Shown: positions 4,686 through 64,000 of the stretch, one piece after another | How positions within the stretch are numbered: position 1 is the first letter of the stretch | How the letters are laid out: each line of letters starts with the position of its first letter | DNA from: Candidatus Rokuibacteriota bacterium | GTDB taxonomy: Bacteria > Methylomirabilota > Methylomirabilia > Rokubacteriales > CSP1-6 | Length of the DNA: 64,000 bases | Assembly: GCA_044869815.1 (NCBI GenBank) | Contig: JBIOXS010000097.1 | Location: 9,969 to 73,968, forward strand | Direction: 5' to 3' | Translations under genes and position numbers: made by a program | Notes under the pieces: model-generated | Told to the model about the DNA's origin: nothing | Seen by the model: only the letters and a program-made list of their open reading frames with translations | Databases searched by the model: none

Positions 4686-4724
4686 GGCAATCCCCCGGGT
4701 CCTCCCGCGAGGACCGGTGTCGAG

Positions 4725-4900
4725 AAGTAGCACCCGGGCAGGTCTCCTGGCTTTCGGATCGTCCTACTCCCCGCGCCTTCCCGGCCTCGCGGCCAGTGGC
4801 CATCGCGGGTTTCGTCCCCGATTACAGTGACGGGGTCGCGGCGGATTCGCACCGCCTTCCCTGGGGGGCCCTCCTGGGGGCACCCGGGCGCGAACAACGG
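4725..4900 (-). promoter_or_regulatory. Cobalamin riboswitch (B12 element) with SD-sequestering expression platform
   Basis: The minus strand reads ...GGGAAGGCGGTGCGAATCCGCC...ACTGTAA...GCCACTGGCC...GGGAAGGCGCGG...AAAGCCAGGAGACCTGCCCGGG. B12 box AGCCAGGAGACC is the complement of 4741-4752. Palindromic CCCGGG at 4883-4888 and 4733-4738 can close P1. Downstream hairpin GGTCCTC-GCGG-GAGGACC (4698-4715) buries the GGGAGGA Shine-Dalgarno. A TATATA box lies at 4949-4954. Confidence 0.9.
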
Positions 4901-4967
4901 CGAGACGATAACAGGCGCGGCAGGCCACCGCAAGGCGCGGAACCCGCCTATATAAAGGATGCGCCGG

Positions 4968-41506: not shown

Positions 41507-42588
41507 GATGGGCGGCGGCTCTGATGGCCGGCGCCGTCCTGCTCGCCGGCTGCGCCACGGCCCCGCCGCGCGCGGAGATGGTGTCCGCCCATCGTGAGCG
41601 TGCCCGCACGCTCGAGCGGGACGGCCACCTCCGCGCCGCGCTGCTCGAGTGGAAGGTCGCGCGCACCATCGATCCCGACGACACGGAGGCGCGCGCCGAG
41701 CAGGCGAAGCTCGAGGCCCGCATCCAGCGGCGCGTCGCCGAAAGGCTGGCCGAGGCGCGCGCCGCCGCCGCCCGCGGCGTCCACGTCGAGGCGCGGCGCA
41801 AGCTGATGTCGGTGCTGGCGCTCGACCCCGAGAACGCCGCCGCGGCGGCCATGCTGCGCGGCTCGGGGCGCGAGGGCGAGTTCGTCACCCACACGGTGCG
41901 GGCGGGCGAAACGCTCGGGACGATCGCCGAGCGCTACTACAGTGACCGCTCGCGCAGCGAGGTCATCTGGGAGACCAACCGCCTGCCGCCCGGCCGACCG
42001 CTGGTGGTGGGCAGCACGCTCAGGATCCCCGAGATCCCGGGCCTGCCATTCGCGACGGGCGGCGCCAAGGCGGCCACGGCGCCGAGCCCGCCGACTCCGC
42101 CGCGGCCGACCACCGATCGCGCCGGCACGACCGAAGAGCCGCCCGAGATCAATCCGATGCTCGCCGACATCCGTGACGCGATCGACCGCAAGGATTACGC
42201 AGCCGCGCTCGCCGACATCGACCGGTACATCGCGCTCAATCCGGGCGACCCCGAGCCGGTGGAGCTCAAGAAGCTGACGCTCTATCGCCAGGGCTACACG
42301 CTCCTCGAGCAGAAGAGCTACGACGAGGGCTACAGGGCGCTGCGGCAGCTCGCCAAGCTGCAGCCGGACTACCTGGACATCACGAGCCTCGTGCAGCAGG
42401 CGCGCCGCCAGGTCATCGACCATCACTACCAGGAGGGCATCCGGCACTTCCGCGAGGAGCGGCTGCAGGAGTCTATCGGCGAGTGGCGCCTCGTGCTCGA
42501 CATGGAGCCGCAGCATCCGAACGCGCGCCGGAACATCGAGCAGGCCGAGCGTCTGCTCGAGGCTCTCGAGCGCCGCAAGACGCGCTAA
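41503..42588 (+). CDS. Lipoprotein with LysM domain and TPR-like repeats
   Basis: Residues 185-545 of ORF 40951..42588, from ATG 41503 (ATGA overlap). Lipobox LLAGC. LysM: HTVRAGETLGTIAERYY...STLRIP. TPR-like helices on both sides. Confidence 0.75.
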   Translation: MRWAAALMAGAVLLAGCATAPPRAEMVSAHRERARTLERDGHLRAALLEWKVARTIDPDDTEARAEQAKLEARIQRRVAERLAEARAAAARGVHVEARRKLMSVLALDPENAAAAAMLRGSGREGEFVTHTVRAGETLGTIAERYYSDRSRSEVIWETNRLPPGRPLVVGSTLRIPEIPGLPFATGGAKAATAPSPPTPPRPTTDRAGTTEEPPEINPMLADIRDAIDRKDYAAALADIDRYIALNPGDPEPVELKKLTLYRQGYTLLEQKSYDEGYRALRQLAKLQPDYLDITSLVQQARRQVIDHHYQEGIRHFREERLQESIGEWRLVLDMEPQHPNARRNIEQAERLLEALERRKTR

Positions 42589-43481
42589 CCCGCGAGCCGC
42601 TCCAGCTCCGCGCGCGCCGGCAGCGACGCCTGCGCGCCACGACGCGTGCACGCCACCGCCGCCGCCGCATTGGCGAAGCGCACCGCCGCCAGCAGCTCGC
42701 GCCCCTCGGCGAGCGCCACCGCCAGCGCCCCGTTGAAGGCATCGCCGGCGGCCGTGGTGTCGACGGCATCGACGCGGAAGGCCGGAACGTGCCGCGGCGG
42801 GCCGTCGCCGCACGCCAGCACGCCGCGCTCGCCGAGGGTCACCAGCACCCGCCGCGCGCCGCGCGCCCGCAGGGCGGCGGCCGCCGCCTCCTCACCGTCG
42901 CCGCCGGACAGTCGCGCCGCCTCGCCCGCATTGGGCGTCAGGTAGTCGACGAGCTCGAGAAACTCGAGGCCGGCGTCCGGCACCGGCGCCGGGTTGAGGA
43001 TCGTCGGCACCCCGCGGTCACGCGCGAGCTCGAGCGCGCAGCGCACGGTCTCGAGCGGAATCTCGCAGGAGGCGACCACGATCTCGGCCCAAGCAAAGTC
43101 GTCGACACGGTCACGCACGTGCTCGACCGTGAGCGCGCGGTTGGCGCCGGGAGCGACGGCGATCTGGTTGCGCCCCTCGCGGTCCACGACGATCAGCGCG
43201 GTGCCGGTCGCGGCCGCCGCGCTCGTCACGACTCCCGTCGTGCCCACACCCTCGGCGGCGAGCGCCGCGCGCAGCGCGCGCCCGGAGGCGTCGTCGCCGA
43301 CGCAGCCGATCAGCCGAACGTCGGCGCCCAGCCGCCGCGCCGCCACCGCCTGGTTGGCGCCCTTGCCCCCGTGGTTGACGAGCAGCGTGCCATTGGTGAC
43401 GGTCTCGCCGGGCTGCGGCAGGCGCGCGAGCGCCATCGTGAAGTCGACGTTGGCGGAGCCGACTACGAGGACGCGCGGCAC
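42585..43481 (-). CDS. rbsK: Ribokinase (PfkB family)
   Basis: ORF 42585..43481. Motifs: VVGSANVDF, NHGGKGANQAVAA, DTTAAGDAFNGAL. Confidence 0.9.
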   Translation of the reverse strand: MPRVLVVGSANVDFTMALARLPQPGETVTNGTLLVNHGGKGANQAVAARRLGADVRLIGCVGDDASGRALRAALAAEGVGTTGVVTSAAAATGTALIVVDREGRNQIAVAPGANRALTVEHVRDRVDDFAWAEIVVASCEIPLETVRCALELARDRGVPTILNPAPVPDAGLEFLELVDYLTPNAGEAARLSGGDGEEAAAAALRARGARRVLVTLGERGVLACGDGPPRHVPAFRVDAVDTTAAGDAFNGALAVALAEGRELLAAVRFANAAAAVACTRRGAQASLPARAELERLAG

Positions 43482-44356
43482 AGCGCGGCCAGGAAGCTCT
43501 GCATGAACCGCGGGGCGTCGACGCGACGCGCGATCCGCACATTCGGCGCGCCCGTGAGGCGCCGGGTCTCTCCGTCGGGTCCGACCTCGAGCCGGACCGG
43601 CTCCCAGGTCGTCAGCGATGGATCGACCGCCACGCCCACGGCGAGCGGGTCGTGGAGCGTCATGCCGCGGGTGCCGAACGACCGCGCCGTGAAGCGGACA
43701 ACCCGCTCCGCGAACGGCGCGGGCGTGGCGGCGAGCGCGGCCTCCAACGCATGGCGCTCCAGCACCGCCTGGCGCGTGGCATCGAGCGGGACGAGATCGA
43801 GCGGCAGCCCGGCGTCGAGCACGCGCCGGGCGGCATCCGGGTCGACGTGGACGTTGAACTCCGCGTCCGGCGTCACGTTACCGGGCACGTCCACCGCGCC
43901 ACCCATGGCCACCACGCGCCCGACGGCCCGCATCGCAGCGGCGTCGGCCTCGACGGCGAGGGCGACGTTCGTCAAGGGCCCGAGCGCGATGAGGGTGAGC
44001 CGGTGGCGGTGGCGCTGCGCCGCCTCCAGCATGAGTGCGACGGCCCCCCCGGCCGCGAGCGTCGGGTGGGCCGCAGGCCAGTCATCGAGGTCGCCCAGGC
44101 CGTCTTCGCCGTGGTGACGCGTCGCGGTCCGGAGGGCGCGGGCGAGCGGCGCCACCGCACCCTGCCCCACCACCGGCGCCGGCCGCGGATCCCGCAGCGC
44201 CAGCAGCCGGAAGACGTTGAGGGTCCCCACGGCCACCGGGACGTTTCCGGCGACGGTGGTGATGACCTCGACCTCCAGCGACGGCGTCCCCCACGCCTGG
44301 AGGAGGGCCAGCGCGTCGTCCACGCCGGGGTCGGTATCGATCAGGACCGGCGGCAT
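43463..44356 (-). CDS. Inosine/uridine-preferring nucleoside hydrolase
   Basis: ORF 43463..44356. N-terminal IDTDPGVDDALAL signature. Confidence 0.9.
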   Translation of the reverse strand: MPPVLIDTDPGVDDALALLQAWGTPSLEVEVITTVAGNVPVAVGTLNVFRLLALRDPRPAPVVGQGAVAPLARALRTATRHHGEDGLGDLDDWPAAHPTLAAGGAVALMLEAAQRHRHRLTLIALGPLTNVALAVEADAAAMRAVGRVVAMGGAVDVPGNVTPDAEFNVHVDPDAARRVLDAGLPLDLVPLDATRQAVLERHALEAALAATPAPFAERVVRFTARSFGTRGMTLHDPLAVGVAVDPSLTTWEPVRLEVGPDGETRRLTGAPNVRIARRVDAPRFMQSFLAALCRASS

Positions 44357-44425
44357 CGAATCCTCAGACCGAGTGCCCGACTCTTATACAATTGAGGGCG
44401 AGAGCGCTCGGGAGGAGGTGCGCGC

Positions 44426-44653
44426 ATGGACATCGAGATCCTGTATTGCGGGGAGTGACACTACCTGCCCCAGGCCTCCAGTTTGCAGGCCGCCATCAAA
44501 GACAAGTACGGCATCACCGCCAAGCTCCGCGAGGGCGCGGGCGGTATCTTCGAGGTTTCCATCGACGGCAGCACGGCGTACTCGAACCAGGAGACGTACC
44601 GCTTTCCGGAGAACGAGGAGATCTTCGCCAAGATCGACGCCGCTAGGAAGTGA
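44426..44653 (+). CDS. SelW-like / Rdx-family selenoprotein, Sec (TGA) at codon 11
   Basis: Not in the ORF track. GGGAGGAGG (44410-44418), 7 nt, then ATG 44426. Translation: MDIEILYCGE-U(TGA 44456-44458)-HYLPQASSLQAAIKDKYGITAKLREGAGGIFEVSIDGSTAYSNQETYRFPENEEIFAKIDAARK, stop 44651-44653. CxxU motif after beta1 and a GG.FEV..DG core, as in SelW. Candidate bSECIS stem at 44473-44491. TACAAT box at 44387-44392. Confidence 0.75.
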
Positions 44654-45914
44654 GCGCACGCTCGAGCTCTTCCCGATAGCGCGGGTGGGCCACGGTGGTC
44701 AACGCCGCGGCCCGCTGTCGCACCCCCAGTCCTCGTAGCCGCACCGCCCCGTGCTCCGTCACCACCCAGTCGGCGAGATACCGCGGCGTGCTGACCGCCG
44801 CTCCCGCCCCCAGCCGCGGCACGATCCGTGAGACGGCGCCGTCGCGGCCGCCCCTCGACGGCAGCGCAATGACGGCGGCACCCTGCTGCGCGCGAGAGGC
44901 GCCGAGCACGAAGTCGAACTGTCCACCGATGCCCGCCACCTGACGGCCGCCGAGGCTCTCGGCGTTCACCTGGCCGCTGAGGTCGATCTCGAGCGCCGAG
45001 TTGATGGAGACGAAGCGGTCGAGTCGGGCCACCACGTCGGGGTCGTGGACGAAGGCGGACGACTCCATGTTGACGCGCGCGTTGTCGTGCAGGAAGTCGA
45101 ACAGGCGCCGCGTGCCCATCGCCTCCGCGATGTCGAGCCGTCCCCGGTGGAACGGCTTGCGCGCCGCCGTCACCACGCCGCGCTCGATCAGCGTCACCGA
45201 AGCATCGACGAGCAGCGAGTGGAGCGCGAGGTCACGATGGTCGCCCAGCGCCTCCAGCACCGCCTGCGGGATGGCGCCCACGCCGACCTGCACGGTGGCG
45301 CCGTCCGGGACGAGGCCGGCGACGTGGCGCCCGATGGCGCGCTCGACGTCACCGACGGCGGGCGGCGGGTACTCGAGCAGGGGCTCGTCGACCTCGACCC
45401 AGGCGTCGACCTGGCTCCGATGCAACCAGCAGTTGCCACGCGTGCGGGGCATGCGCGGATTCACCTGGGCGATCACGAGCGGCGCCGTGCGCGCGGCCGG
45501 CAGGGCCACGCCGACGGCGACCCCGAGACTCAGATAGCCGCGCGCGTCGGGCGGCGCCGTGTGGACGAGCACGCAATCCGGTGCCCACGCGCCCCCCCGC
45601 GCGAACACGCTGACGACGTCGAAGTACCGCACGGGGACGAAGTCGACGCGGCCGCGACGTCGGGCGTCGTCGAGCTCTGGCGACATGTGCCAGCTCGCCG
45701 CCGCCAGCGTGGCGTGCTCCGGTCGCGCGAAGCCGAAGTCGCCGAGATGAATGCCGCCGAGCACCGTGAGATCGCGCAGGCGGTCGGCCTGGCGACAGAT
45801 CTCGGCGAGCAGCGCGGTCGGCTCGCCGCACCCGGGTGGGACGAGGACCTTCATGCCGGGTCGCAAGCGCTCGACAGCGCCGGCCACCGTTTCGCGGACG
45901 AACGCGCGGGGCAT
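44643..45914 (-). CDS. Acetyl-CoA hydrolase/transferase family protein (4-hydroxybutyrate CoA-transferase-like)
   Basis: Residues 181-603 of ORF 44643..46454, from ATG 45914. Motif: SINSALEIDLSGQVNAESLGGRQVAGIGGQFDF. Confidence 0.85.
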   Translation of the reverse strand: MPRAFVRETVAGAVERLRPGMKVLVPPGCGEPTALLAEICRQADRLRDLTVLGGIHLGDFGFARPEHATLAAASWHMSPELDDARRRGRVDFVPVRYFDVVSVFARGGAWAPDCVLVHTAPPDARGYLSLGVAVGVALPAARTAPLVIAQVNPRMPRTRGNCWLHRSQVDAWVEVDEPLLEYPPPAVGDVERAIGRHVAGLVPDGATVQVGVGAIPQAVLEALGDHRDLALHSLLVDASVTLIERGVVTAARKPFHRGRLDIAEAMGTRRLFDFLHDNARVNMESSAFVHDPDVVARLDRFVSINSALEIDLSGQVNAESLGGRQVAGIGGQFDFVLGASRAQQGAAVIALPSRGGRDGAVSRIVPRLGAGAAVSTPRYLADWVVTEHGAVRLRGLGVRQRAAALTTVAHPRYREELERALTS

Positions 45915-45938
45915 GGGCGGCCCGTATAATACCGCGCC

Positions 45939-46115
45939 ATGACCACGCGCTTGCTCGTCCTCGCCCTCGCCGTGCTCGTGATCTGCGGGTGCAGCTCGTC
46001 TCGCCACGGCGCCCCGGCGTCGACCTCCGGCGCGCCGCGCGCGCGCTGTCTCGTGGATCCGAACGAGGGCGGCACCCGCCCGCTCATCTATCTGTTGTGC
46101 ATCGAGAGCCCGTAA
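45939..46115 (+). CDS. Small (58 aa) putative lipoprotein
   Basis: Below the ORF-track size cut-off. MTTRLLVLALAVLVICGCSSSRHG... is a signal peptide with a lipobox-like ICGC. High GC3. TATAAT (45925-45930) lies 8 nt before the ATG, and the stop lies 1 nt before the SDR gene. Confidence 0.45.
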   Translation: MTTRLLVLALAVLVICGCSSSRHGAPASTSGAPRARCLVDPNEGGTRPLIYLLCIESP

Positions 46116-46116
46116 G

Positions 46117-46896
46117 ATGAGGGGCGTGACTCCCCGCGTGGCACTCGTCACCGGCGGCGGCCGCGGCATCGGCCGCGCCATCGTCCTCAGGCTCGCCAAG
46201 GAGGGACTGCGGGTGGCCATCGGCGCGCGGACAGCGGAACAGGTCCAGGAGACCGCGCGTGCCGCCGGCGCCGCCACGCTCGCCCTCGCCCTCGACGTCG
46301 CCGACGCCGCGTCGGTCGCCGCGGCCGCCCGGCGCACCGTCGACGAGCTCGGCCCGATCGACGTCCTCGTCAACAACGCCGGCGTCGCCGAGTCCGCCCC
46401 GCTGGGCCGCACCGATCCCGAGCTCTGGGACCGGCATTTCCGGGTCAACGTCACCGGGCCCTATCTGCTCACGCGTGCCCTCCTGCCCGGGATGCTCGAG
46501 CGGCGCTGGGGACGCGTCATCAACGTCGCATCGCTGGCCGGGCTTCACGGCTCGCCGTACGTGACCGCCTACACCGCCTCGAAGCACGCGCTCGTCGGCT
46601 TCACCCGCGCGCTGGCGACCGAGGTCGCCGGCAAGGGCGTGACCGTCAACGCGCTCTGCCCGGGGTTCACGGCGACCGACATGGTCTGGCGCGGCGCGCG
46701 GAACATCGTGGACAAGACCGGCACGTCGTTCGAGGAGGCCGTGCAGGCGCTCGCCCACATGAATCCGGGACGGCGGCTCATCGAGCCCGAGGAGGTCGCG
46801 GAGGCGGCCGCCCGCCTGCTCGACGACGTGGCCACCAACGGCGAGTGCATCGTGCTCGACGGCACCGAGCCGGCCCCGAAGGGAGCGAAGCGATGA
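46117..46896 (+). CDS. Short-chain dehydrogenase/reductase (3-oxoacyl/3-hydroxyacyl type)
   Basis: ORF 46117..46896. Motifs: TGGGRGIGRAI, NNAG, YTASKHAL. Confidence 0.9.
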   Translation: MRGVTPRVALVTGGGRGIGRAIVLRLAKEGLRVAIGARTAEQVQETARAAGAATLALALDVADAASVAAAARRTVDELGPIDVLVNNAGVAESAPLGRTDPELWDRHFRVNVTGPYLLTRALLPGMLERRWGRVINVASLAGLHGSPYVTAYTASKHALVGFTRALATEVAGKGVTVNALCPGFTATDMVWRGARNIVDKTGTSFEEAVQALAHMNPGRRLIEPEEVAEAAARLLDDVATNGECIVLDGTEPAPKGAKR

Positions 46897-62046: not shown

Positions 62047-64000
62047 ATGCCGCAGTTCCTGCCGTTCGTTCAGCGCTGGTTCGACGAGACATTCCGCGAG
62101 CCCACTCCGCCCCAGCGCGACGGCTGGCAGGCGATCGCGTCGGCCCGCGACACGCTGATCGTCGCCCCCACCGGCTCGGGAAAGACGCTGGCCTCGTTCC
62201 TGTGGGCGCTCGACCACCTGCATCGTCTTGCGGTAGATGGGCGTCTCGAGGACAAGGTCTATGTCGTCTACGTCTCGCCGCTGCGCGCCCTGAACAACGA
62301 CATCGAGAAGAACCTGCGCGAGCCGCTGGCCGGCATCCGCCGCGCCGCGGAGGCGGCGGGCCTCGACCTTCCGGAGGTGCGCGTGGCCGTCCGCACCGGC
62401 GACACGCTGGCCGCGCAGCGGCAGGCCATGACCCGCCGGCCGCCGCACGTCCTGATCACGACGCCTGAGTCGCTCTACATCTTACTGACGTCGGCCGGCT
62501 TTCGTCCGGCGCTGGCGCAGGCGCGCTTCGTCATCGTCGACGAGGTCCACGCGCTCCTCGGCGGCAAGCGCGGCGCGCACCTGGCGCTCTCGCTCGAGCG
62601 GCTGCAGGCGCTCGTGCAGGAGGCGGGTGGCCCGCGGCCGCAGCGCATCGGCGCCTCCGCCACCGTGCGCCCGGTCGAGGACGCCCTGGCGTTTCTCACG
62701 GGCGCCACCGCCGTCGATCCGGTCGCGGTCGACGCCGGATTCTCGCGCGATCTCGACGTGCGCGTCACCTCGCCCGTCGACGATTTCCTCACCACCCAGA
62801 GCGACATGGTCTGGGACGCCACCCTGCAGCAGGTGGCCGAGCTCGTGCAGTCGCATCGCACGACGCTCGTCTTCGCGCAGAGCCGTCGCTCCGCCGAGCG
62901 CCTCGCGCGCGATCTCAACGACCGCATCGTGGACGGCCGCGTCGCCGCGCACCACGGGTCGCTCTCGCGCCGGGCGCGGCTCGACGCCGAGAATCGCCTC
63001 AAGGCCGGCGACCTCAAGGCGCTCGTGGCCACCTCTTCGCTCGAGCTCGGCATCGACGTCGGCGCCATCGACCTCGTCGTGCAGCTCCAGTCGCCGCGCA
63101 ACGTGGCGGCCGCGCTGCAGCGCGTCGGCCGGGCCGGCCACGCGCTGTCGCGCGTATCCAAGGGACGGATCGTGGTGACCAAGGGCGAGGAGCTGGTGGA
63201 GGCGGCGGCCGTCGTGCGGTCGATCCGGGAGCGCACGCTCGACCGCATGCACATGCCGAACGCGCCGCTCGACGTGCTGGCCCAGCAGATCGTGGCCGCC
63301 GTCGCCGCCGAGTCGCTGGACGTCGACCTCCTCTACCGCCGTTTCAGCGCGGCCGCCCCCTATCGCAAACTCACGCGCGAGACGTTCCTCGAAGTCGTCC
63401 GCTCGGTGGCCGAGCCGCTGCCTCACGAGGTGAAGGGCGCCGCTCCGCGCATCCTGTGGGACCGGGTGAACGACCGCCTGCACGCGCGGCGCGGCACGCG
63501 GTTCCTCGCGCTGACCTCCGGCGGGACCATCCAGGACGCCGGCCTCTACGACGTCTACGTCGCCGACACCGACTTGAAGGTCGGCACCCTCGACGAGGAG
63601 TTCGTCACCGAGTCGCTGCCGGGCGACGTGTTTCTGCTCGGCTCCAACGCGTGGAAGATCGTGCGCGTGCGCGCCGACCGCGTGCTGGTCGAGGACGCGC
63701 ACGGCATGTCGCCCACGATCCCCTTCTGGAAGGGCGAGCACCCGTCGCGGTCCTACGATCTCGGCGTGGCCGTCGGTCGCCTGCGGCGCGAAGCGGCGGA
63801 GCGCATCGACGACCCGGACTTCGTGGCCTGGGCCGAGCGCGAGTGCGGGCTCGAGGAGCGCGCGGCCCTCGCCATGCGGGCCTGGCTCGCCAAGGCCGGC
63901 GAGGTCCTCGACGGCGTGCCCGACGATCGTGGCCTCGTGGTGGAGTCCTTCGCCGACGAGATGGGAGGCCGCCACGCGATGATCCACTCGGTCTTCGGCA
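62047..64000 (+). CDS. lhr: Lhr-type large ATP-dependent DEAD/DEAH helicase, N-terminal ~650 aa (runs off the window)
   Basis: Not in the ORF track because no stop lies inside the window. MPQFLPFVQRWFDETFREPTPPQRDGWQAI..., motif I APTGSGKTL, motif II VIVDEVHAL, SAT GASATV, motif VI QRVGRAGH, followed by the Lhr WH/beta-barrel region. Confidence 0.9.
   Translation, partial: MPQFLPFVQRWFDETFREPTPPQRDGWQAIASARDTLIVAPTGSGKTLASFLWALDHLHRLAVDGRLEDKVYVVYVSPLRALNNDIEKNLREPLAGIRRAAEAAGLDLPEVRVAVRTGDTLAAQRQAMTRRPPHVLITTPESLYILLTSAGFRPALAQARFVIVDEVHALLGGKRGAHLALSLERLQALVQEAGGPRPQRIGASATVRPVEDALAFLTGATAVDPVAVDAGFSRDLDVRVTSPVDDFLTTQSDMVWDATLQQVAELVQSHRTTLVFAQSRRSAERLARDLNDRIVDGRVAAHHGSLSRRARLDAENRLKAGDLKALVATSSLELGIDVGAIDLVVQLQSPRNVAAALQRVGRAGHALSRVSKGRIVVTKGEELVEAAAVVRSIRERTLDRMHMPNAPLDVLAQQIVAAVAAESLDVDLLYRRFSAAAPYRKLTRETFLEVVRSVAEPLPHEVKGAAPRILWDRVNDRLHARRGTRFLALTSGGTIQDAGLYDVYVADTDLKVGTLDEEFVTESLPGDVFLLGSNAWKIVRVRADRVLVEDAHGMSPTIPFWKGEHPSRSYDLGVAVGRLRREAAERIDDPDFVAWAERECGLEERAALAMRAWLAKAGEVLDGVPDDRGLVVESFADEMGGRHAMIHSVFG

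Follow-up and report, generated by a model that had tools for sequence, protein, structure and literature searches.

Bacterial SelW-like selenoproteins, as characterised by Zhang, Gladyshev and colleagues, share a single domain type, a small size and a CxxU redox motif (U standing for selenocysteine, Sec) placed right after the first β-strand; their genes also carry a selenocysteine insertion sequence (SECIS), a hairpin soon after the UGA whose small apical loop contains a G, and few or no Cys homologues are present in the Sec-using lineages. The present analysis concerns a gene of this type, hidden by an in-frame UGA at positions 44426-44653 of the forward strand of a 64,000-nucleotide (nt) stretch of DNA from a Candidatus Rokuibacteriota bacterium (assembly GCA_044869815.1, contig JBIOXS010000097.1), the whole of which is called the window hereafter. 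In the Sargasso Sea data, the SelW-like family, represented by 48 genes, ranked first among selenoprotein families by abundance; its function was called unclear, a redox role being deduced from the CxxU motif (PMC1088965). Further members were reported in Geobacter, Desulfotalea, Symbiobacterium and other genera, with few Cys homologues in organisms using Sec (PMC1794560), and the family is listed as PF10262/CxxU in the table of a 2026 review (PMC13188914). The criterion for a bacterial SECIS (bSECIS) is a stem-loop that closely follows the UGA and bears G, or G-U, in its small apical loop (PMC1088965, PMC4607533). The SelW genes of Epsilonproteobacteria were likewise missed by annotation and display an apical hairpin of 5/6 bp a few nt after the TGA (PMC4607533). 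Descriptions of both the bacterial SelW-like CxxU selenoproteins and their SECIS hairpins within the coding region thus go back to 2005, and it is documented that annotations omit them.

When compared to this bacterial family, the window gene shows nothing essentially different. The orthologue group to which it belongs is set apart by a near-invariant SECIS sequence of its own and by a fixed genomic neighbourhood, and no explicit description of a SelW-like orthologue group from Rokubacteria/Methylomirabilota was found in the searched literature. The Campylobacter-type proteins of NCBIfam model NF041051 share the minimal architecture of about 70 residues without extensions, and the window protein differs from them by its phylum and by a score below the cut-off of that model. 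The closest structures are those of Cys-type bacterial Rdx proteins (Atu0228, 2FA8; SAV_2001, 3DEX; 2OKA, 2OJL, 2OBK and 2P0G), with template modelling (TM) scores of 0.8-0.9 and root-mean-square deviations (rmsd) of 1.2-1.7 Å for the best chains; these proteins have the same fold and motif position but are of the CxxC type, comprise about 100 residues and need no SECIS. Mammalian SelW (2NPB) and MIEN1 (2LJK) also share the Rdx fold and the position of the CxxU/CxxC motif, at an identity of only 20-24%; their sequence E-values are 0.083 and 1.7e-5 and their Foldseek TM scores 0.62 and 0.75, respectively. Decoding of eukaryotic SelW relies on a SECIS located in the 3' untranslated region together with SBP2 and eEFSec, not on a SelB-bound hairpin within the coding sequence.

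The minimal SECIS of Escherichia coli fdhF, as described by Liu and colleagues in 1998, is reportedly a 17-nt upper stem-loop placed 11 nt after the UGA, with G23-U24 in the loop. Like this element, the hairpin of the window gene is short, lies in the coding sequence just past the UGA and exposes a G-U at its apex, at +26/+27 counted from the U of UGA instead of +23/+24. Unlike it, the window hairpin has a spacer of 14 rather than 11 nt, a C·C mismatch in place of the bulged U, and another stem sequence. The two geometries are close, and the window element would, as in the established bacterial Sec pathway, be bound by SelB.

Reading frame and conservation of the UGA codon

The frame opened by the ATG at 44426 reads MDIEILYCGE, meets a TGA at 44456-44458, then runs through 64 sense codons to a second TGA at 44651-44653; the former is the single in-frame TGA before the terminal stop. 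An earlier note, made from the DNA sequence alone, had proposed this frame, together with a GGGAGGAGG Shine-Dalgarno sequence 7 nt before the ATG and an 11-nt overlap of the 3' end with a convergent CoA-transferase gene. All these elements match the sequence, and the ORF list and Pfam place the overlap with the acetyl-CoA hydrolase/transferase gene at 44643-44653. The same note described two open reading frames (ORFs) of the ORF track, 44392..44646 (+) and 44384..44659 (-), as Arg-rich shadow frames: both are present, but only the plus-strand ORF is rich in Arg. No Pfam match was obtained with either ORF or with a longer overlapping one, 44217..44738 (+).

Orthologues were obtained by scanning GTDB species representatives. 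The resulting set comprises 80 loci, almost all of them from Rokubacteria/Methylomirabilota, and counts out of 81 refer to these loci plus the window. Nucleotide identity among the 81 gene sequences ranges from 71 to 91% over the gene. Codon 11 is TGA in all 80 orthologues, hence in 81/81 sequences; the earlier note had suggested checking in orthologues whether this codon is Sec or Cys. None of the 80 loci ends at this codon and all of them retain conserved coding sequence downstream, in an open frame. Cys8 is invariant (81/81), the motif YC[GAS]E is kept before the TGA and the orthologues are colinear. The orthologues start with ATG in 79 cases and with GTG in one, and a Shine-Dalgarno-like core is present between -17 and -4 in 79/81 sequences, with a conserved purine-rich block at -13 to -6. 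They terminate at codons 75-79 with TAG, TAA or TGA. Variability amounts to 0.85 bits at the third codon position versus 0.57 and 0.52 at the first and second. The first in-frame start after the TGA is TTG at codon 20 (44483), found in 64/81 sequences and replaced by CTG in the other 17; the downstream part is therefore devoid of a conserved start of its own. Because TGA is kept in 80/80 orthologues and the synonymous sites over the hairpin are frozen, as detailed below, a chance origin of the whole feature is ruled out.

Two peculiarities of this region deserve mention. The codon following the UGA (44459-44461) is CAC (His) in the window alone of the 81 sequences; it is AAC in 79 others, where Asn is never written AAT, and GAC in one. 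The base next to the UGA is C in the window and A in nearly all relatives. In a single metagenome contig of 637 nt (L081, ENA ERZ27276474 k141_5862998, protein P0003), codon 11 (412-414) is a real TTA (Leu), a single base apart from TGA, with the SECIS hairpin fully intact. The TTA is due to an error of sequencing or assembly, or else marks an allele that was inactivated recently.

Family membership and predicted fold

Profile and PDB sequence searches were performed with Sec written as Cys. The product belongs to the Rdx family of the SelT/SelW/SelH superfamily. The Pfam Rdx profile PF10262 matches with 56.8 bits (cut-off 22.6, E = 2.7e-15), residues 3-71 being aligned on profile positions 2-73 of 74, and NCBIfam TIGR02174 (CXXU_selWTH) with 51.1 bits (cut-off 34.2) over profile positions 1-73 of 74. 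Both matches exceed the curated cut-offs and span the TGA, in agreement with the family assignment made in the earlier note. The top-scoring NCBIfam model is NF041051 (SelTWH_Campy), with 73.7 bits and residues 3-70 on profile positions 1-69 of 70. When compared to the PDB sequences using phmmer, the protein matched only Rdx proteins (MIEN1 2LJK, SAV_2001 3DEX, 2OKA, Atu0228 2FA8, 2OJL, 2OBK, mouse SelW 2NPB and 2P0G), whose CxxC aligns to Cys8/Sec11; in homologues of solved structure such as 2LJK and 3DEX, the position of Sec11 is occupied by Cys.

An AlphaFold2 model was produced for the orthologue P0001, 77% identical to the window protein, from an alignment of 28 sequences. Its mean predicted local distance difference test score (pLDDT) is 96.6, and the succession of its elements (strand 3-8, helix 14-28, strands 33-37, 43-46 and 49-53, helix 63-74) is the β1-α1-β2-β3-β4-α2 topology of Rdx proteins. 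The CxxU motif occupies the β1-α1 loop of this model, after strand 3-8 and before helix 14-28, so that its location directly after the first β-strand of a thioredoxin-like Rdx fold, as put forward previously, is seen in the predicted structure. A Foldseek search of the PDB with this model returned Rdx-family structures at ranks 1-23 (bacterial SelW-related proteins, mouse SelW and MIEN1), with TM scores of 0.62-0.91 and rmsd values of 1.2-1.7 Å for the best chains; generic thioredoxins rank below these 23 structures. From motif and fold, we infer that the product acts as a thiol/selenol oxidoreductase.

The SECIS hairpin

The hairpin begins 14 nt after the UGA, where GGCCU (44473-44477) pairs with AGGCC (44487-44491). 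Its interior contains a C·C mismatch followed by inner C-G and A-U pairs and an apical G-U-U, and an additional pair C44471-G44492 is possible below the stem. This structure, which had been proposed as a candidate bSECIS with a GU in its loop, is the minimum-free-energy structure of the region in the window sequence and the minimum-energy fold in 71/81 sequences, with a median core pair probability of 0.94.

The hairpin segment is almost invariant across the 81 sequences, including at sites where the genetic code would allow changes. Ala17, a four-fold degenerate codon, is GCC in 81/81 and Ser18, a six-fold degenerate one, is TCC in 81/81. Ser19, which provides the G-U of the loop, is encoded by AGT in 81/81, a rare codon representing about 6% of the Ser codons in three neighbouring genes. 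Leu20 is written TTG in 64 sequences and CTG in 17; CTC, which is preferred for Leu (52%), is absent from this position. Elsewhere in the gene, conserved Gly, Val, Thr, Arg, Pro and Leu codons show a synonymous entropy of 1.1-1.6 bits. The few substitutions that do occur preserve the pairing. In L007, the change C31G makes a pair out of the C·C mismatch. In six sequences (L024, L032, L038, L041, L042 and L043; columns 33-39 of alignment A1), Ala22 is replaced by Glu through a GCC to GAG change, which creates a GGAGGCC perfectly complementary to the 5' arm GGCCUCC and thereby permits a 7-bp stem whose 8-nt loop still contains the G-U. RNAfold selects this re-registered stem in L041, L042 and L043, and another, nearly isoenergetic fold in the other three. 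All six sequences carry a G at column 15 of the alignment and probably form one clade, so that the GCC to GAG change may be a single evolutionary event. The frozen synonymous sites and the pairing-preserving variants establish that the hairpin is under selection at the RNA level. Second copies of the SECIS core were sought in the window and in the loci; apart from the gene and its reverse complement, nothing matched.

Representation in public databases

A search of a collection of 5.8 billion proteins returned 326 matches, almost all of them fragments of 56-62 residues starting after the TGA. Many are named "selT/selW/selH-like putative selenoprotein" at the Joint Genome Institute (JGI) or "Rdx family protein [Rokubacteria/Methylomirabilota]" at the NCBI, and the JGI annotation already gives the family name to shortened orthologues with an identity of up to 98% over the aligned part. 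The few full-length entries display W or L at residue 11. W is found at the Sec position of the JGI entries P0001, P0002 and P0005; the DNA underlying these entries was read for P0005, the other two being known as protein entries. The corresponding codon of P0005 (L082, 10031-10033) is TGA and the recorded protein is not reproduced by translation with table 11, which is indicative of a gene call made with a non-standard code reading TGA as Trp. An exact look-up of the 56-residue ORF of the window gave no record.

Gene finders routinely shorten SelW-like genes: most of the 326 related entries are affected, and a few carry a spurious Trp. The correct model for the window is a gene at 44426-44653 with a transl_except qualifier for Sec at codon 11. 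It supersedes the two shadow ORFs of the ORF track as well as the 56-62 residue fragments of the public databases.

Evaluation of alternative interpretations

The hidden SelW/Rdx-type selenoprotein gene announced in the earlier note is upheld by the profile matches, the TGA kept in 80/80 orthologues, the constrained hairpin and the Rdx fold predicted for an orthologue, and we regard it as highly probable that 44426-44653 is a genuine Sec-containing SelW-like gene. A number of results nevertheless weigh against this interpretation. Neither the window nor the related loci yielded selA, selB, selC or selD. In particular, ARAGORN detected no tRNA-Sec in the window, which has no tRNA gene of any kind, or in the first 60 of the 80 loci (L001-L060; L061-L080 not scanned), and tblastn with approximate E. 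coli SelA and SelD queries gave no match in 1.21 Mb of DNA (window and related loci), a weak negative in view of the approximate queries and of the small DNA sample. As far as the hairpin is concerned, the fold of the window sequence taken alone does not stand out from shuffled controls (z = 0.77 and 0.33); since these single-sequence scores are not significant, the weight was put on the comparative evidence. The stem shows no classical compensatory covariation or double compensatory changes among the 81 sequences, a count that is uninformative because the stem hardly varies. Rfam yielded no SECIS match, whether the whole window was scanned at the gathering threshold or 44380-44700 at E <= 10; the sole weak match is a meaningless one to a long non-coding RNA, and this type of bacterial SECIS has no curated model. 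RNAalifold favours a different, weak consensus helix (columns 13-20 with 26-34, -3.6 kcal/mol); this helix was rejected, as it is the minimum-energy fold in 7/81 sequences only, has a median pair probability of 0.0 and leaves a loop without G. On the protein side, the 73.7 bits obtained with NF041051 fall below its equivalog cut-off of 88 bits, so that the gene is not a member of this equivalog, and the modelled structure is that of the orthologue P0001 with Trp at the Sec position, not that of the window protein.

The simplest alternative is that the TGA is a genuine stop ending a 10-residue peptide, the downstream part being a pseudogene in decay after a nonsense mutation from TGC or TGT to TGA. 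The standard code does read TGA as a stop, this codon is the main stop of the window, and gene callers leave the full gene uncalled in most database entries. A pseudogene, however, would not remain intact across sequences this diverged. The TGA is kept in 80/80 orthologues of separate species; none of them has a stop among the 64 codons that follow it, a segment matched by the Rdx profile; variability is highest at third codon positions; and the true stop always falls at codons 75-79. This explanation is effectively refuted by conservation, and we consider it extremely improbable. Slightly less remote, and still very improbable, is the expression of the post-TGA part alone from an internal start such as the TTG at 44483, yielding an N-terminally shortened Rdx-like protein of 56-62 residues. 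Most database entries are indeed calls of this length located after the TGA, and codon 20 is TTG in 64/81 sequences. It is nevertheless CTG in 17/81, with no other conserved start, whereas the conserved ATG, the Shine-Dalgarno sequence and the YCxE motif all lie upstream of the TGA. Such a product would moreover have an incomplete fold and active site, because β1 and the entire CxxU would be missing.

It could also be envisaged that the UGA is decoded as an amino acid other than Sec: an alternative code would give Trp or Gly, and near-cognate read-through Trp or Cys. The W displayed by JGI entries P0001, P0002 and P0005 and the absence of detected Sec machinery in the window and in the related loci scanned would agree with this. 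The DNA of P0005 is nonetheless TGA, and the entry, failing translation with table 11, points to a non-standard-code gene call. A reassigned code is excluded by the use of TGA in the window, where it is the commonest stop and terminates 17/25 long coding-like ORFs, and by three neighbouring genes verified with Pfam, which contain no internal TGA and encode Trp by TGG. In alignments, the codon falls at the position of the redox Cys or Sec of the family, and a frozen hairpin following it is required for Sec insertion and needless for a reassigned codon. Finally, the use of Sec is reported for the phylum: a Methylomirabilota metagenome-assembled genome with 63 predicted selenoprotein genes is mentioned in the 2026 review (PMC13188914), and Sec-containing group 4 hydrogenases are reported from Methylomirabilota (PMC13582414). 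This literature suggests, at the level of the phylum, that the organism decodes Sec. The odds of a decoding other than Sec thus appear minimal, and the selenocysteine reading is retained.

Genomic neighbourhood and other features of the window

The coordinates of the gene, of its signals and of its neighbours are collected in Table 1.

Table 1. Features of the SelW-like locus and of the adjacent genes (window coordinates).
Feature	Position	Strand	Basis or remarks
PfkB kinase gene	42585-43481	-	ORF list and Pfam
Inosine-uridine nucleoside hydrolase gene	43463-44356	-	ORF list and Pfam
Divergent intergenic region, 69 nt	44357-44425		Between nucleoside hydrolase and SelW-like genes
Shine-Dalgarno GGGAGGAGG	44410-44418	+	Spacer of 7 nt to ATG; read from sequence
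SelW-like/Rdx selenoprotein gene	44426-44653	+	75 codons including the putative Sec, then stop; translation, profiles, colinear orthologues
Start codon ATG	44426-44428	+	Read from sequence
CxxU redox motif	44447-44458	+	Cys8 (TGC), Gly9, Glu10, Sec11 (TGA)
In-frame UGA, codon 11, very probably read as selenocysteine	44456-44458	+	TGA in window and in 80/80 species-representative orthologues
Proposed bacterial SECIS hairpin, stem GGCCU/AGGCC	44473-44491	+	Minimum-energy fold in window and in 71/81 sequences
True stop codon TGA	44651-44653	+	Ends the frame after 64 sense codons past the codon-11 TGA
Acetyl-CoA hydrolase/transferase-family gene	44643-46454	-	PF13336, E = 9e-52

The neighbourhood is conserved among the orthologous loci. 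The nucleoside hydrolase gene, accompanied by the PfkB kinase gene, is located divergently upstream of the SelW-like gene, about 70-250 nt away, in 78/80 loci, and the acetyl-CoA hydrolase/transferase gene abuts its 3' end or overlaps it by a few bases in 79/80, L065 being the exception with a distance of about 2.1 kb. The arrangement observed in the window is also found in L082. This synteny gives no obvious functional link. The 69-nt divergent region presumably holds promoters; no match to the sigma-70 consensus was found in this spacer. Within the SelW-like coding sequence, the minus strand shows two overlapping terminator-like matches (44508-44522), each combining a 5-bp stem with a weak T tract; they could serve the convergent CoA-enzyme gene, although they are weak and may be due to chance.

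A crude screen of in-frame TGAs based on G+C content at third codon positions, which would miss short genes, revealed no further selenoprotein gene in the window and returned only adjacent genes in the same frame and shadow frames. An FdhF-style in-frame TGA at the stop 62008 was rejected, as it separates two adjacent genes, the next one in frame encoding an Lhr-type DEAD-box helicase. This helicase gene (about 62050-64000, +) runs off the end of the window, and L082 has one of the same kind about 9 kb downstream of its own SelW-like gene. A cobalamin riboswitch aptamer (RF00174) is present in full length at 4720-4902 (-), with 110.7 bits against a gathering score of 31.5.

Proposed mechanism and significance

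The expression of the gene can be pictured as follows. Translation would start at the ATG at 44426 behind the strong Shine-Dalgarno sequence. With the UGA of codon 11 in the ribosomal A site, the hairpin 14 nt downstream (44473-44491) would present its apical G-U and recruit SelB·GTP·Sec-tRNA(Sec), Sec being inserted in competition with RF2, after which translation would run on for 64 codons. The product is expected to adopt a minimal thioredoxin-like fold with Cys8 and Sec11 in the β1-α1 loop, and these two residues would, as deduced from the family, alternate between the reduced state and a selenenylsulfide, the protein working as a thiol/selenol oxidoreductase.

The gene is an ordinary member of a known family and reveals no new mechanism or family, as SelW-like CxxU proteins are well known in bacteria and close orthologues already carry the name. 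It is unlikely, although conceivable, that the orthologue group is more than generic SelW-like, with a redox partnership involving a syntenic enzyme and an invariant 19-nt hairpin, with its C·C mismatch, AGU apex and 14-nt spacer, representing a lineage-specific SelB consensus; such a consensus, if true, would help to mine the selenoproteomes of Methylomirabilota, which are reported to be unusually large. Its value is mostly practical, residing in the corrected gene model and in the indication that the source genome decodes UGA as Sec. This genome should therefore carry selABCD and probably contains more hidden selenoprotein genes.

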